Shown: one piece after another, positions 2,948-62,239 of the stretch
How the letters are laid out: each line of letters begins with the position of its first letter
Numbering within the stretch: position 1 is the stretch's first letter
Origin: an uncultured Bacilli bacterium
GTDB taxonomy: Bacteria > Bacillota_I > Bacilli_A > RF39 > UBA660
NCBI GenBank assembly: GCA_947632355.1
Contig: CANROY010000001.1
Coordinates: forward strand, 2,040 to 66,039
Direction: 5' to 3'
Length of the DNA stretch: 64,000 nt
The notes under the pieces: model-generated
The model's database searches: none
What the model was told of the DNA's origin: nothing
What the model saw: only the letters and a program-made list of their open reading frames with translations
Made by a program: the position numbers and the translations under genes

Positions 2948-3043
2948 AGAATGCCTCCAACTAATAAAATTATACTATATTTAATCAAAACAACAACACT
3001 AAAATATGTAGTTAATTCTATAATATAAATAAAATCGATAACA

Positions 3044-3064
3044 GTTTTATAAATCCTGCCTTTT
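3044..3064. repeat. Direct repeat GTTTTATAAATCCTGCCTTTT (copy 2)
   Basis: Matches 1543..1562. Confidence 0.6.
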
Positions 3065-3111
3065 TTTTGAATTGCAACAAACTTATGTTATAATTTGTAA
3101 AAAAGTGGTGA

Positions 3112-3777
3112 ATGAATATGACTAAAGATATTAAAGAAACAAAAATTACTGAATTTTTAAATAAATATAGTTCTTTATACCCTGATTATGCAAAAAATGA
3201 ATTTAAAAATATACTGAATGGATATACAATAAACAATGATTTAATAAATCAAATATATTGTTACTTAAATTTAATTGATATAAAAAAATCTGATTATTAT
3301 ATTTTTTATAATTATCTAAAAAAGGATCAGTTTTTAAAGGATAATATGTTAGAAGTAGGATGTGGTGCCATTCCAATATTATCTTACATTATCTCTGAAA
3401 ATAATTATCAAATAACGGCTTTGGATAAAACCGTTGTTATTAAAGATTTTAAATTCCCAATTATTGAGCAAAAAATAGAGAATCATTTTAATTTTTCACA
3501 ATATAATAGTGTTGTTGCTTTTAGACCTTGTATGACAACAGAAATTATAATAAAAGAATGTTTAACAAATAAAATCCCATTTTGCATCTATTTATGTAAT
3601 TGTGCTTTATATCCACAAGAAGACTACCAACTATTTAATGAAAAGGATTGGTCAAATAAAAAATGGATTCAATATTTGGAAGATAGGATTAAGAAATATA
3701 ATATACATAATATGGAAATTAAAATAGACTACCAAACAAATTTATTTGATGAAATGCCAATTATATCCGCAAAATAA
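3112..3777 (+). CDS. Hypothetical protein (possible SAM-MTase-like Rossmann motif LEVGCGA)
   Basis: 221-aa ORF with upstream TTGAAT-16-TATAAT promoter and GTGGTG RBS; weak glycine-rich motif only. Confidence 0.45.
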   Translation: MNMTKDIKETKITEFLNKYSSLYPDYAKNEFKNILNGYTINNDLINQIYCYLNLIDIKKSDYYIFYNYLKKDQFLKDNMLEVGCGAIPILSYIISENNYQITALDKTVVIKDFKFPIIEQKIENHFNFSQYNSVVAFRPCMTTEIIIKECLTNKIPFCIYLCNCALYPQEDYQLFNEKDWSNKKWIQYLEDRIKKYNIHNMEIKIDYQTNLFDEMPIISAK

Positions 3778-3792
3778 ATTGCTATAAAAATT

Positions 3793-3823
3793 TCTTACAC
3801 AAAATAAAAATTTGTGCTACAAT
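3793..3823 (+). promoter_or_regulatory. Promoter TTCTTACAC..TGcTACAAT (extended -10); paralogue of 5336..5368
   Basis: TGnTACAAT extended -10 about 95 nt upstream of the MATE RBS; same TTTCTTACACAAAA..TTTGCTAYAATG architecture repeated at 5336. Confidence 0.55.
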
Positions 3824-3878
3824 GAATAACGTTGAGTAAAAAAAACGAAAGTCAATGAATCAATGAGTAGCAAAAATG

Positions 3879-3917
3879 CGTAAGTCCAGTTGAATAAGGG
3901 CTTACGTATTTTATTTG
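3879..3917 (+). terminator. Leader hairpin plus U-tract (attenuator/terminator) in MATE 5' leader
   Basis: CGTAAGTCC / GGGCTTACG 9-bp stem, 10-nt loop, followed by TATTTTATTTG. Confidence 0.5.
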
Positions 3918-3944
3918 CTTAAAAATAAAGGAGGAATTATATAT

Positions 3945-5330
3945 ATGAAAGAACTTGATTTAGGAAAGGACAAAATTTCAAAACTATTAAAGAAATTTGC
4001 TATTCCCTGTGTCATTAGTATGATTGTTGCAGCACTTTATAACATTGTTGACCAAATCTTTATCGGTTGGAGTGATGCCGGTGCTTTTGGAAATGCCGCT
4101 ACCAATATTGTTTATCCTTTTACCGTGATTGCCCTTGCTTTTGCTCTCCTTATTGGAGATGGTGCTGCTGCTTTATTCAATCTATCTTTAGGTGCTAAGA
4201 ATAACAACCAAGCAAATAAATCTATTGGAAATGGTTTACTACTTTTAGTTGGTATTTCTTTTGTACTCACCATTCTTGGTCTTCTATTTCAAAACCCTAT
4301 CTTAAAAATTTTTGGAGGTAATCCAAACGAAGTTTTATGCTATGAATACGCAAAATCTTACTTACAAATTATTACGTATGGCCTACCGTTTTATATTATC
4401 GGTCAAGGGTTAAATGCATCCATTCGTAGTGATGGTAGTCCCAATTATGCAATGTTTGCTACTATGCTAGGAGCTATTACCAATATCATTTTAGACCCAA
4501 TCTTCATCTTTGTATTTCATATGGGAGTAAAAGGTGCAGCACTTGCAACCATTCTTGGTCAAATTTTAACATTCTTAGTAAGTATTCTCTATATAAGGAA
4601 AGCCAAATACTTTTCTATCAACCAACAAGCCTTAAAACTAGATAAAGAAATTTGTAAAAAAATACTTTCTTTAGGTCTTGCATCCTTGATTACGCAAATT
4701 GCCATTGTGATTATTATTGCTGTTGCGAATAACTTAGTAACACAATATGGCTATACAACTCTATCTTCAACAGGAAATCCTTATGGAGTCGTTATCCCAC
4801 TTGCAGTCATTGGAATTTGTATGAAAATATTTGGTATTGTTGTATCTATTGTCATTGGAGTTTCATTAGGTGGTATGCCAATCATTGGTTTTAATCGTGG
4901 GTCAGGAAATATAGAAAGAGTAAAAGAAACCATCAAATATATCCTTATCATAAATCTTTTGATTGGTTGCATTGCTTTTTTACTCTTTGAATTTTTTCCA
5001 ACGTTCATTATTAATCTATTTGGTAAAGGAAATTCTTTTGAATACTTAGAATACGCCCAATACTGTTTAAAAATTTTCTTAGGAGGAATTATTCTAACTT
5101 GCTTAGTAAAATCTTTATCTATTCTTTTACAATCAATGGGTTCTAGTTTTAAATCCACTCTACTTGCTTTATCAAGAGACGTTCTCTTTTTTGTACCAGC
5201 CATTTTATTACTAGCCAAAATAAGTGAAAGTGTTGTTACAATGTTATGGAGTGCTTTAATTGCCGATATTTTATCTTTCCTTTTAGGAATGATACTTTTA
5301 CTAAGTGAATTTAAAAAAATAGAAAAGTAA
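3945..5330 (+). CDS. MATE family efflux transporter
   Basis: 12-TM protein with MATE N-terminal signature (KLLKKFAIPCVISMIVAALYNIVDQIFIG); AAAGGAGG RBS 8 nt upstream of ATG 3945 (ORF track start 3915 lies inside the RBS). Confidence 0.85.
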   Translation: MKELDLGKDKISKLLKKFAIPCVISMIVAALYNIVDQIFIGWSDAGAFGNAATNIVYPFTVIALAFALLIGDGAAALFNLSLGAKNNNQANKSIGNGLLLLVGISFVLTILGLLFQNPILKIFGGNPNEVLCYEYAKSYLQIITYGLPFYIIGQGLNASIRSDGSPNYAMFATMLGAITNIILDPIFIFVFHMGVKGAALATILGQILTFLVSILYIRKAKYFSINQQALKLDKEICKKILSLGLASLITQIAIVIIIAVANNLVTQYGYTTLSSTGNPYGVVIPLAVIGICMKIFGIVVSIVIGVSLGGMPIIGFNRGSGNIERVKETIKYILIINLLIGCIAFLLFEFFPTFIINLFGKGNSFEYLEYAQYCLKIFLGGIILTCLVKSLSILLQSMGSSFKSTLLALSRDVLFFVPAILLLAKISESVVTMLWSALIADILSFLLGMILLLSEFKKIEK

Positions 5331-5335
5331 AAATT

Positions 5336-5368
5336 TTCTTACACAAAAAGAAAAACTTTGCTATAATG
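5336..5368 (+). promoter_or_regulatory. Promoter TTCTTACAC..TGcTATAAT (extended -10); paralogue of 3793..3823
   Basis: Near-identical architecture to the MATE promoter. Confidence 0.55.
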
Positions 5369-5394
5369 TTTTTGGCAAAGAATAGTAGTAAACG

Positions 5395-5462
5395 ACACAT
5401 GTAGAGCATCCTGCTCGTAAATCTGATTACGGAAACTAAGGATAACTCTATATGTGTTTTTT
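5395..5462 (+). terminator. Leader terminator/attenuator: long-range stem ACACATGTAGAG / CTCTATATGTGT enclosing inner hairpin CGTAA-ATCTGA-TTACG, then U6
   Basis: Complementary arms 5395-5406 / 5446-5457 followed by TTTTTT; inner hairpin plus A-rich tail GAAACTAAGGA resembles a preQ1-I-like layout (weak). Confidence 0.45.
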
Positions 5463-5490
5463 ATTGTCTAAAATAAGGAGGTGAAATGTT

Positions 5491-6033
5491 ATGCCATCCA
5501 ATAAAAAGGAAAGAGCAATTTTTGCTTTTATCACGGTTTTGATTACAGTACACGCTTATGTATTTTATAGTTTGTATGTCATAAATGGTAGTACTTTAAT
5601 GAATGCAACTGGAGAAAGTAGTGTTTTAATTGCCATTAACCATTTAGGTGGTGTGTATATGTTTGGGCGCTATTTACCCATTTGGGCTGTTGTTTTAACA
5701 GAATTTTGTTTTGCTTATTGTATGGAAATGCTAGTTGGTAGTCCTTTTTCCTTTAAAATGGCTTGTAAAAATTTTGATATCAAAAAAACAGACCCTGTTC
5801 AATTTGAAACAGCCGTTATTTGTGCAACGGTTGCAATAATGGTTCCTGTTATGAGTTTAATTGCAGCATTCTTATATTATCCATACTATGCAGGATTTCA
5901 TATTGTAACTTTACTTGCGAATTGGTTGAAATTAATTTGTTTTAATTTTCCTTTTGCTTATTTTTCTCAACTATTTTTTATTCAACCACTCGTAAGAACA
6001 ATCTTTAAATTCTTATTCAAAAAGAATAAGTAA
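5491..6033 (+). CDS. Small polytopic membrane protein (~5 TM), possible ECF-type S component/transporter
   Basis: 180 aa, hydrophobic helices; strong RBS AAGGAGGTG; preceded by structured leader. Confidence 0.6.
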   Translation: MPSNKKERAIFAFITVLITVHAYVFYSLYVINGSTLMNATGESSVLIAINHLGGVYMFGRYLPIWAVVLTEFCFAYCMEMLVGSPFSFKMACKNFDIKKTDPVQFETAVICATVAIMVPVMSLIAAFLYYPYYAGFHIVTLLANWLKLICFNFPFAYFSQLFFIQPLVRTIFKFLFKKNK

Positions 6034-6097
6034 ATTTGTAGCAAATCATTTTGGTTTGCTTTTTTTGATATAATGCTTTTAACAGGAGGTTAGAAAA

Positions 6098-6580
6098 ATG
6101 AATCAAAACAAATTAGAAACCATTTCAAATTTATTTGAAGGTAAAGAAATAAGAAGTATTTGGGATAGCGAAAAAGGAGACTATTACTTTAGTGTGGTAG
6201 ATGTAATATCCGTTTTAACAAATGCCAATATTCCTAGAAATTATTGGAGTGATTTAAAAAGAAAATTAGAAAAGGAAGGAAGTCAACTGCACGAAAATAT
6301 CGTGCAGTTGAAAATGAAAGCACAAGATGGAAAATTAAGAGGAACTGATACTTTAAACACTAAAGGAATATTTAGACTTATAGAATCAGTTCCAAGTCCT
6401 AAAGCAGAACCATTTAAATTATGGCTTGCTAATTTAGGTAGTGAGAGAGTAGATGAAGTCTTTGACCCAGAAATTGCTATTAATAGAGTCATTGACTATT
6501 TTAGAAAACGAGGATATAGCGATAAGTGGATTAAGACACATTTTCTTACCATCCTTCAAAAAGTAAAAGCAAATAGATAG
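6098..6580 (+). CDS. Bro-N domain / DinD-like DNA-damage-inducible protein
   Basis: N-terminal FEGKEIRSIWDSEKGDYYFSVVDVISVL resembles the Bro-N/DinD fold; RBS AGGAGG. Confidence 0.5.
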   Translation: MNQNKLETISNLFEGKEIRSIWDSEKGDYYFSVVDVISVLTNANIPRNYWSDLKRKLEKEGSQLHENIVQLKMKAQDGKLRGTDTLNTKGIFRLIESVPSPKAEPFKLWLANLGSERVDEVFDPEIAINRVIDYFRKRGYSDKWIKTHFLTILQKVKANR

Positions 6581-6680
6581 TAAAGATAGATTTGCAAAGC
6601 AAATGTTAGCATCAGTTGACAAATTTCCAACTCAAACAGGTAGATTGCAACCAAAAGAAACGATATAATTTAGGTGTGAG

Positions 6681-7340
6681 GTGAAAGATTTGAATCATTT
6701 AGGTGAAAGATTATTAGAATTAAGAAAAGAGAAAAAATTATCTCAAGAAGAAGTAGCAGACAAATTAAATGTTACAAGACAAACAATTTCAAAATGGGAA
6801 ACGGACCAAAGCACACCAGACTTTGATAAAATTGTTCCTTTATGTGAATTGTATGGTATTACTCCTAACGAATTATTTATTGAATTAAAAGAAAAGGAAC
6901 CTTCAAAAAAAGTGAAACCTATATTTGATTTTGAAGAAGAAATGAAAAAGAGTAATAAAAAAGCCAAAGGAATTGCCATAAGTATTCTACTTTATTTCAT
7001 ATCAATTGTATGGATTATGATTGCCATTCCTGTTTTAAATATGAATCCTATTGTTGCATCTGCCCTATTCTTGCTTATTTGTGGACTTGCGACCGGTATC
7101 ATTGTTTATGTATGTATTCGTTATAAAAAAATAAAAAATGACGAAGAAGAAACAGAAACAGAAAAATTAATCAATCAAATCTCGAATGTAGTTGCGATTA
7201 TCGTTTTAATTTTTTATTTAGTTATTAGTTTTAAAACAATGGCTTGGAATTTAACGTGGATTATATGGGTCATCTATGGATTATTTGAAGAAATCTTAAA
7301 ATTAATATTTATGCTTAGAGGTACGAAAGATGAAAAATAA
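6681..7340 (+). CDS. XRE-family HTH transcriptional regulator with C-terminal transmembrane segments
   Basis: LSQEEVADKLNVTRQTISKWE HTH; 3 C-terminal TM helices; GTG start after AGGTGTGAGG. Confidence 0.8.
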   Translation: MKDLNHLGERLLELRKEKKLSQEEVADKLNVTRQTISKWETDQSTPDFDKIVPLCELYGITPNELFIELKEKEPSKKVKPIFDFEEEMKKSNKKAKGIAISILLYFISIVWIMIAIPVLNMNPIVASALFLLICGLATGIIVYVCIRYKKIKNDEEETETEKLINQISNVVAIIVLIFYLVISFKTMAWNLTWIIWVIYGLFEEILKLIFMLRGTKDEK

Positions 7341-16533: not shown

Positions 16534-16562
16534 TTGACAAATTCGTGTAAACCTGCTATAAT
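16534..16562 (+). promoter_or_regulatory. Consensus sigma-A promoter TTGACA-17-TATAAT
   Basis: Perfect -35 TTGACA (16534-16539), 17-bp spacer, perfect -10 TATAAT (16557-16562). Confidence 0.8.
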
Positions 16563-16568
16563 GTAGGC

Positions 16569-17057
16569 ATGTGGTGCATTATTCTAGTCACCAAAATAAT
16601 ATGAAGATAGGGCTAAAAATCTATCAATTGTGCGAAGGCACTTTATATATTCTGCTTTCTTCGCCCAGAGGAGGGTGGATATATAATTTAAGATTTAAGG
16701 AAAGTTATAATGGCATATAACCAACCTCCTTTTATCGATGCAAAGAAACGATTAAAGCACATGTCGTGCGTGGTAATGTGGGATATCTTTTGAAAACATT
16801 ACTGCAAAAGCGAATAAGTATTAGAATGGGTGTTTGGGAAAACCTCTAGAGTGTCAACATCACAAAGATTAAGGTACGGACTAAGTGGCAATCGAGTAAT
16901 TAAAATGGTGACATTTAATTATTTTCCATAATGAGAAATCACCTTAGGGTAACCGAAGGCGAGAAAATAGAGAAATTCAACTCGACCTAAGCCGTAAAAT
17001 TAATTTGTGAGAAACCACTTTTAAGTTGTATAGAAAAGTTCTTCGGAACTTTTTTTC
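16569..17057 (+). ncRNA. Candidate ~490-nt structured non-coding RNA (or long cis-leader) of unknown class
   Basis: Consensus promoter upstream; no ORF over 30 codons on either strand; locally GC-enriched (~38% vs ~20% for neighbouring intergenic DNA); ends in a clean UUCG-tetraloop terminator (17034..17057) 19 nt before the next gene. Confidence 0.5.
17034..17057 (+). terminator. Rho-independent terminator AAAAGTTC-TTCG-GAACTTTT followed by T-run
   Basis: 8-bp stem, UUCG loop, T7 tail. Confidence 0.8.
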
Positions 17058-62079: not shown

Positions 62080-62239
62080 ATTTCCTCCTTTTATATTTTT
62101 GAAATAGAAAAGCTCTTTTATGGGAAAAAGAGCTTATAAACATAAGTTACTTACTTTTCCCTCGGTAGGATTATTAAGATTACTCCCCTACTGTCTTTGG
62201 TAATCGGCTTTTCTATTACGTATTATATTAAATAATCCC
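62080..62239 (-). promoter_or_regulatory. rplJ 5' leader (expected L10(L12)4 autoregulatory leader region)
   Basis: 160-nt GC-enriched untranslated region between rplA and rplJ, as in other Firmicutes; structure not verified. Confidence 0.4.

Follow-up and report, generated by a model that had tools for sequence, protein, structure and literature searches.

In a stretch of 64,000 nucleotides (nt) from an uncultured Bacilli bacterium (contig CANROY010000001.1, positions 2,040 to 66,039; hereafter the window), two consecutive genes on the forward strand are each preceded by a promoter, a leader of about 115 nt (110-120 nt) that ends in a hairpin and a U-rich run, and the ribosome-binding site (RBS) GGAGG. 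The first gene encodes an efflux transporter of the MATE family and the second a membrane protein of 180 amino acids (aa). The two leaders, here called leader 1 and leader 2, are the subject of this work, and their features are collected in Table 1. A previous interpretation of the window made from its letters alone (the sequence-only reading) had proposed the same promoter architecture before both genes and, for each of them, a leader of about 100-120 nt with a hairpin, a U-tract and a strong RBS; both descriptions were confirmed. Among the retrieved loci, the closest relatives of the window are uncultured Bacilli from the rabbit gut.

Both promoters are formed by CTTACA, an 18-nt spacer and TG-n-TAYAAT. 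Aligned in register, the 39-nt segments 3786-3824 and 5330-5368 have an identity of 82%, and the exact 14-mer TTTCTTACACAAAA occurs in the window only at 3791 and 5335. The layout of promoter 1 (-35 CTTACA, A-rich spacer, TGnTATAAT) was also seen 5' of MATE genes in the loci L001, L002, and L017, and a layout like that of promoter 2 in the close relatives L002, L003, L006, and L014. Taking into account that the window has a GC content of 29% and that exact repeats of 13-14 nt are common in the region, the promoter repeat alone was considered weak evidence, and the case for the leaders therefore rests on comparative data. The inverted repeat TTTTCTT/AAGAAAA was tried as a shared promoter operator and rejected, as it is perfect in promoter 2 only and consists of low-complexity sequence. 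Leader 1 folds with -28 kcal/mol (z -4.8) and leader 2 with -32.5 kcal/mol (z -3.5); in neither case did any of 200 shuffles fold as well, and in both leaders the terminator folds are the minimum-energy structures. A simple terminator scan flagged neither hairpin because their loops exceed its limit.

Table 1. Features of the two leaders and their genes (window coordinates; R1 and R2 are the models of the leader-2 and leader-1 cores, respectively).
Feature	Position	Strand	Details
Promoter 1	3794..3823	+	-35 CTTACA 3794-3799; 18-nt A-rich spacer; extended -10 TG-C-TACAAT 3815-3823
Leader-1 conserved core, 37 nt	3858..3894	+	R2 48.9 bits, E 2e-11
Leader-1 P1a	3860-3864 / 3889-3893	+	5' strand UCAAU; 3' strand GUUGA
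Leader-1 Box 1	3865-3871	+	GAGUAGC; linker 3872-3877
Leader-1 Box 2	3878-3887	+	GCGUAAGUCC; bulged A 3888
Leader-1 intrinsic terminator, type II	3873..3920	+	15-bp stem 3873-3887 (contains Box 2) / 3898-3912; loop 3888-3897
Leader-1 U-rich tract	3909-3916	+	UUUUAUUU
RBS of the MATE gene	3930-3934	+	GGAGG, 9-10 nt 5' of start codon
MATE-family efflux transporter gene	3945..5330	+	461 aa; Pfam MatE 3.8e-37; NCBIfam TIGR00797 174 bits, above cut-off
Promoter 2	5338..5367	+	-35 CTTACA 5338-5343; 18-nt spacer; extended -10 TG-C-TATAAT 5359-5367
Leader-2 conserved core	5380..5448	+	R1 62.8 bits, E 4e-17; motif once per locus in 74 related loci
Leader-2 flank/P1a	5386-5389 / 5435-5438	+	5' strand UAGU; 3' strand ACUA
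Leader-2 P1b	5392-5393 / 5417-5418	+	A5392-C5393 with G5417-U5418
Leader-2 J1	5394-5402	+	GACACAUGU
Leader-2 hairpin P2	5404-5407 / 5413-5416	+	GAGC / GCUC
Leader-2 J2	5417-5432	+	GUAAAUCUGAUUACGG
Leader-2 terminator	5394..5462	+	13-bp long-range stem 5394-5406 / 5446-5458, then U6 5457-5462
RBS of the 180-aa protein gene	5477-5481	+	GGAGG, 9-10 nt 5' of start codon
180-aa membrane protein gene	5491..6033	+	four predicted transmembrane (TM) helices (AF2 model)

For the comparison of leader 2, 80 genomic loci with a homologue of the 180-aa protein were retrieved, and a common leader was found upstream of this homologue in 75 of them. It consists of a 5' flank, AAC-GACACAYGU (J1), two variable nt, a hairpin of variable sequence (P2), and GUAAAUCUGAUYACGG (J2). 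Behind J2 lies a variable region, 13-83 nt long, and then the complement of J1, with a U run 21-97 nt before the start codon. The covariance model R1 of this core has a single match in the 64 kb of the window, and in 441 kb of related loci it found exactly one element per locus, always 5' of the homologous gene and nowhere else. The invariant J1 is the 5' strand of the terminator. The stem that it forms, P1, is 94% paired over 75 sequences in alignment A3, from which the variable region was cut out, and its only variable pair, the middle one, occurs as UA31, CG17, AU13, UG7, and GC5; behind the stem there is a U run in 75 of 75 relatives. In the same 75 sequences 93% of the cells of P2 are paired, with compensatory changes at all four pairs, and the two pairs of P1b, between the nt before J1 and the first nt of J2, were found as CG40, UA15, and UG15. 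All these covariation counts are per sequence and not per evolutionary event, with several clades over-represented, and both alignments, A3 and A7, are composites without the variable segments. Between the 5' flank and the 4-7 nt behind J2 there is complementarity (P1a), in a register that differs between clades; in a register-free test the own partners gave a mean of -3.28 kcal/mol, versus -2.07 ± 0.19 kcal/mol for permuted ones (0/5000). J2 is in turn complementary to its own variable region (-8.1 versus -5.0 kcal/mol for shuffles). Considering that J1 is part of the terminator stem, both invariant strands are Watson-Crick paired in the terminator state.

The long-range terminator stem and the U6 that the sequence-only reading had described in leader 2 were thus upheld, and the small hairpin that it saw inside the stem was not. 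The stem encloses CGUAA-AUCUGA-UUACG, which can form a hairpin in the window, but in the 75 sequences its pairs vary solely by breaking, always to A.C (GC56/other19 and AU47/other28), and 500 of 500 shuffles score at least as high. The A-rich tail behind it, which had been compared with that of the preQ1-I aptamer, is ACUA, the 3' strand of P1a. In the minimum free energy fold the stem of leader 2 is extended to 5383-5392 / 5460-5466, that is, the 5' flank pairs with the sequence past the U run; over the equivalents of these segments in L001-L080 this pairing reached -6.06 kcal/mol, versus -3.73 ± 0.21 kcal/mol when permuted (0/5000), and it may have a role in the full-length mRNA. It was also possible to see a third type of leader before the same gene family in L048, L066, and L069, about 60-140 nt 5' of the match start. 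It contains GCGUAnAAUGGUUCAGCGUGArrUC, a hairpin and a U run, and it is matched by neither R1 nor R2; its order looks Box 2-like and then Box 1-like, so that it may be a permuted relative. L065 had no recognisable leader before its homologue.

A family of its own was found for leader 1. Metagenomes were scanned with the pattern GTAGCN{3,9}GCGTAAGTCC, for which the chance expectation is 0.00, and at least 63 matches with a U run behind were obtained; among the matches listed, about 60 of these are genuine elements, mostly from the human gut. The box conservation in this set is partly imposed because the pattern demanded exact boxes, whereas the covariation of P1a and of the terminator is not. 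When the matches were pooled with the elements of the genomic loci, 72 distinct elements resulted, in all of which the core follows the order P1a of 3-5 bp, GWGURGC (Box 1), a linker of 4-8 nt, GCGUAARUCC (Box 2), one purine, and P1a'. Pairing in P1a reaches 95.3% in these elements, versus 75.7% in shuffles, with a covariation of 0.642 versus 0.249 (0/500), and at most 59% if the partner is slid; the pair types were AU33, GC18, UA14, and GU5 at one position and CG43, UA16, and UG13 at another. The model R2, built without the window, recovered the core of leader 1 as its sole significant match in 64 kb, the next one having an E of 1.6. The leader 1 of the window and the MATE leaders of the loci with the small gene have AUCAAUGAGUAGC-n-GCGUAAGUCC in common.

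Around the same leader-1 core, three terminator layouts were distinguished, all of which overlap Box 1 or Box 2. In type A the 5' strand is P1a plus Box 1, and compensatory pairs are seen. Type B is like type A with an additional inner helix, which covaries (UA15/CG7; AU17/GC12). In type II, the layout of the window, the 5' strand is Box 2, and 22 other type II elements have the same layout with runs of U5-U8. The terminator-like hairpin that the sequence-only reading had noticed in leader 1 corresponds to this one, with UUUUAUUU behind the stem. A type A and a type B element precede one MATE gene in tandem in L082-L084, L090-L092, L099, L109, L124-L126, L132, L133, L161, L172, L180, and L188; there, type A follows directly after the TATAAT box and type B lies 70-90 nt downstream, each with its own U run. 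In L086, L091, L099, L174, and L188 a conserved AAGGAGGCUAAAUCCUCUCCUC segment comes directly after the type B terminator, and another gene, for example one for a DeoC-like or GatB/YqeY-like protein, precedes or replaces the MATE gene.

Among the matches listed, 43 of the 54 open reading frames (ORFs) downstream of leader-1 elements encode MATE pumps. Among the remaining ones are genes for an MFS transporter and for CarD-like proteins, an ORF of 80 aa, and a gene whose product is distantly homologous to the 180-aa protein (hhalign probability 97.9%). The CarD-like genes (Pfam CarD_TRCF_RID and CarD_C) follow the elements at L079 3622-3659, L176 1680-1742, and L010 833-869; the 80-aa ORF, without Pfam hit, follows elements in L026, L027, L111, and L166. 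Ruminococcus albus 8 (L026), a cultivable species that carries leader 2 as well, has its small membrane gene followed by a leader-1-type element, the 80-aa ORF, a second such element, and the MATE gene.

The two families have points in common. The degenerate 12-mer GTAARTCYRRTT is present in both leaders and is found in the window only at 3880 and 5417, with 0.34 occurrences expected by chance; in both families the elements are ordered GUAG, hairpin or linker, (C)GUAARUC. R1 and R2 each missed the other leader in the 64 kb window, and since neither model detects the other leader, they were taken as two families and not one. Leaders 1 and 2 appear to be members of two separate, old families; they share only a promoter style and a 12-nt box, and are not recent duplicates. 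The proposal of conditional termination from duplicated modules was therefore retained in its first part, two related leader-terminator modules on two membrane-transport genes, and abandoned as to the duplication. The two families are treated here as two classes that serve one regulon.

No Pfam or NCBIfam family was assigned to the 180-aa protein in our scans, which went up to E<=10. A large protein database yielded more than 5,000 homologues with 70-97% identity, from gut Clostridia and Bacilli; they carry the precomputed label PF11391/DUF2798, while our own Pfam scan of the 180-aa protein was negative. The sequence-only reading had postulated a protein with about five TM helices and the size of a QueT-type S component. 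The AlphaFold (AF2) model (pLDDT 80.7) shows instead four long TM helices and a small beta hairpin, a structure search with it detected no solved relative and no ECF S-component fold, of six helices, and the Pfam scan gave no QueT hit. The protein is not QueT, and no function can be assigned to it. A MATE gene adjoins its gene in 13 of the 80 loci and is the only recurrent neighbour within ±3 kb; no recurring regulator gene was found there. The gene directly after it in the window (6098-6580, + strand) encodes a BRO-N domain (Pfam 2.3e-12), which suggests phage or mobile-element sequence beside the regulated pair.

In every variant, a conserved strand of the core doubles as the 5' half of the terminator (J1 in leader 2, one of the two boxes in leader 1), and P1a, by which the core is closed, crosses the helix of the terminator. 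Both leaders have, as riboswitches do in general, a structured 5' domain with covarying helices around invariant unpaired nt, together with an expression platform and a sensor fold that compete with each other; in both, a stable GC-containing hairpin stands directly before a U run, as in intrinsic terminators. The conservation, the covariation of the helices, the overlap of core and terminator, and the association with the genes are established. We propose, with a probability of about 0.55, that the leaders belong to two families of cis-acting leader RNAs of gut Firmicutes, distinct but related, which regulate by conditional intrinsic termination, the gene being ON when the core is stabilised. 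The compact conserved core of each leader would be aptamer-like, with one of its strands serving as the 5' half of the downstream terminator hairpin. In agreement with the terminator folds at minimum energy, and with a nascent leader-2 core that reaches only -7.3 kcal/mol, the more stable terminator would be formed by default and transcription would stop before the gene. If the core fold were stabilised, the terminator would be blocked and the RNA polymerase would read on into the downstream gene, that of the MATE pump or that of the small membrane protein. We infer that the core binds something and that this binding leads to read-through rather than termination, which would suit exporter genes; the effector would be a small molecule, most likely one that these exporters remove. 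A conserved sensor combined with expression platforms of several layouts is the signature of a riboswitch, and together with the tandem copies and the lack of a linked regulator within ±3 kb it favours a riboswitch for a small molecule.

Several observations weigh against this proposal. With about 37 nt the core of leader 1 is very small, and the near-invariant boxes in it would also suit a recognition site for a protein or a trans-acting RNA. The direction of the switch, ON or OFF, is deduced solely from the topology and the exporter logic. In the window the U tract of leader 1 is interrupted (UUUUAUUU), and the terminator stem of leader 2 closes an interior of 39 nt, which is atypical for efficient intrinsic terminators. 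P1a of leader 2 has just 4 bp in the window, with -2.3 kcal/mol; with fixed columns, in MAFFT and model-fitted alignments, this P1a is only 36% paired, a count that fails because the register differs between clades. Finally, a pure termination model leaves the pairing of the leader-2 flank past the U run unexplained.

The same architecture could respond to a protein or another trans-acting macromolecule, that is, to an antiterminator encoded elsewhere which would bind the boxes (GWGURGC / GCGUAARUCC; GACACAYGU / GUAAAUCUGAUYACGG) as LicT/SacY do on the RAT site and HutP on the hut leader. This we consider unlikely, although it deserves attention. The boxes are kept as sequence in three pairing contexts (loop, stem, and junction), the leader-1 core is very small and tandem sites are common, all of which such a protein would explain; moreover, the CarD-like and 80-aa proteins are themselves under the element in several genomes, which fits autoregulation. 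Nevertheless, the genes of these two candidates are confined to few lineages, whereas the elements span Bacilli and several families of Clostridia with variable neighbours, none of them a recurrent regulator, and the covariation of P1a and P2 around unpaired invariant strands is the usual pattern of an aptamer.

A second possibility is that the closed rod (P1 plus the inner helices) is the ligand-bound form and promotes termination, as an OFF switch, or that the leaders are constitutive structures, either unregulated partial terminators or 5' stabilisers, which set a low basal level. The conserved region of leader 2 lies wholly inside the terminator stem, like aptamers closed by a P1 helix, and the pairing past the U run suggests a role of the rod in the full-length mRNA. 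Both versions are improbable, given that the covarying P1a of leader 1 crosses the terminator in all three layouts, which makes sensor fold and terminator mutually exclusive, that a constitutive hairpin needs no invariant unpaired strands kept across classes, and that the inducer of an exporter gene is normally its substrate.

Ribosome-mediated attenuation, in which a leader peptide senses an antibiotic that targets translation and controls the terminator, as described for many resistance and efflux genes, would be attractive for efflux pumps. Short ORFs do exist in single sequences, such as AUG AGU AGC AAA AAU GCG UAA in leader 1 of the window and MKKCVAYQRKSSL in some type B elements, but no conserved upstream ORF was found in the leaders. 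Leader peptides were rejected for want of conserved start codons: the variants AACGAGUAGC, AUUAAAAAG, and AAUAAAAAG have no AUG, and J1 reads CACGU, CAAGU, or CAGGU in most members of the leader-2 family. Taking into account also that no Shine-Dalgarno sequence precedes the leader ORFs and that the covariation keeps RNA helices and not codons, this mechanism is very improbable. That the features are generic, i.e., terminators of the upstream gene or repeats, with a promoter likeness due to AT-rich sequence, has next to no credibility, for even if short exact repeats are frequent at this GC content and simple terminator and promoter scans show no excess over shuffles, it is already contradicted by the matches of both leaders to models from other genomes (E 4e-17 and 2e-11), the motifs track the downstream gene whatever lies upstream, and the promoters sit behind the upstream stop codon and before the hairpin.

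Beyond the proposal of conditional termination, we consider with some reserve that two riboswitch classes, one with a core of about 37 nt and the other with a core of about 70 nt within its own terminator stem, might sense one same small molecule, probably a toxic gut metabolite or xenobiotic, and switch on an exporter regulon. The genes switched on would then be those of MATE exporters, the 4-TM family labelled DUF2798, an MFS pump, and CarD-like factors in many Firmicutes, which would point to an unrecognised detoxification regulon. We rate both motifs as orphan riboswitch-like transcription attenuators, of a known kind, the motifs themselves not having been found in Rfam 15 or in the literature searched. 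If this is correct, two such classes would be added, and they would be abundant in mammalian gut Firmicutes, considering the number of homologues of the regulated protein (more than 5,000) and of metagenome matches of the second motif (at least 63). A shared signal would show what the MATE pumps and the 4-TM family handle. Guanidine, fluoride, and HMP-PP are examples of the unexpected metabolites to which orphan riboswitches have repeatedly led. Small RNAs with a clear ON-switch logic would make ligand screens and reporter assays practical, and two classes, with three platform layouts on one core, would be a natural experiment on the coupling of terminator and sensor.

Other known RNAs were found elsewhere in the window. 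An OLE (ornate large extremophilic) RNA lies at 16555-17034 (+ strand, 233.5 bits), with a near-consensus promoter, TTGACA-17-TGCTATAAT, just 5' of it (about 16534-16562), and a ribosomal protein L10 leader at 62097-62218 (- strand, 78.3 bits).

Neither motif was matched by Rfam 15, in the whole window at the gathering score, in a permissive scan (E<=10) of 3000-7000, in 27 further loci with either motif or in permissive scans of L083 and L070. The only weak hit in the window was caiA RNA, with 28 bits versus a gathering score of 55.5 (E 0.1), and it is due to the hairpin together with the Shine-Dalgarno sequence. The curated families without a match include guanidine-I to -IV, thiS/HMP-PP, NiCo, Na+, Li+, yjdF, and T-box, several of which the sequence-only reading had named as candidates together with preQ1-I, -II, and -III. 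In the literature we found no description of either motif, under orphan-riboswitch and MATE topics included, and no link of DUF2798/PF11391 to RNA regulation; the box sequences searched as text gave irrelevant hits only, and the 26-genome and 50-genome surveys of the Breaker laboratory reported no MATE-associated motif.

The leaders resemble the preQ1-I riboswitch of queT genes in their small size, in an A-rich stretch with CUAAGG after a hairpin, and in the small membrane protein gene downstream. They differ from it in that no preQ1-I, -II, or -III family was matched, at E<=10 in 3000-7000 or at the gathering score in the whole window, the hairpin lacks covariation, the tail is a strand of P1a, and the protein has neither the QueT Pfam hit nor the S-component fold. 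With the systems of the LicT/SacY-RAT, HutP, and PyrR type they share a conserved RNA site in which the terminator's 5' half is partly contained, and the occupancy of this site decides between termination and read-through; here, in contrast, no cognate regulator gene was found within ±3 kb in the 80 loci and there is no Rfam hit. To our knowledge, the leader sequences are unrelated to the RAT or PyrR binding loops. Ribosome-dependent attenuators of efflux and resistance genes have been found by Term-seq, and they are alike in that an efflux gene has a premature terminator in its leader and an expression that is presumably induced, and different in that the leaders described here lack a conserved leader peptide and a Shine-Dalgarno sequence for it.

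The guanidine-IV riboswitch (mepA motif) and its variant Gd4v are ON switches that act on an intrinsic terminator, often 5' of MATE genes, and Gd4v, the ligand of which is not known, is enriched in gut metagenomes (PMC7736828, PMC9788692). They are formed by two hairpins with a loop-loop pseudoknot (PMC9788692), whereas the leaders described here have a single helix-closed core that overlaps the terminator; there is also no Rfam hit here, and SugE/Gdx, GNAT, and transaminase genes are not among the associated genes seen. The HMP-PP (thiS motif) riboswitch was described as a "terminator-embedded aptamer" (Atilho et al. 2019, as cited in PMC8632094 and PMC11109978). Its boxes are different and its genes are thiamin genes, while those found here are efflux and membrane protein genes, the leaders have no match to thiS or any other family in Rfam, and the interior of leader 2 is much larger, with its own covarying hairpin. 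Even so, a very small sensor merged with the hairpin of an intrinsic terminator, transcription control, and the occurrence in Firmicutes are features of both, and by this analogy the HMP-PP riboswitch, an aptamer embedded in a terminator, would be the closest in concept to the two leaders.

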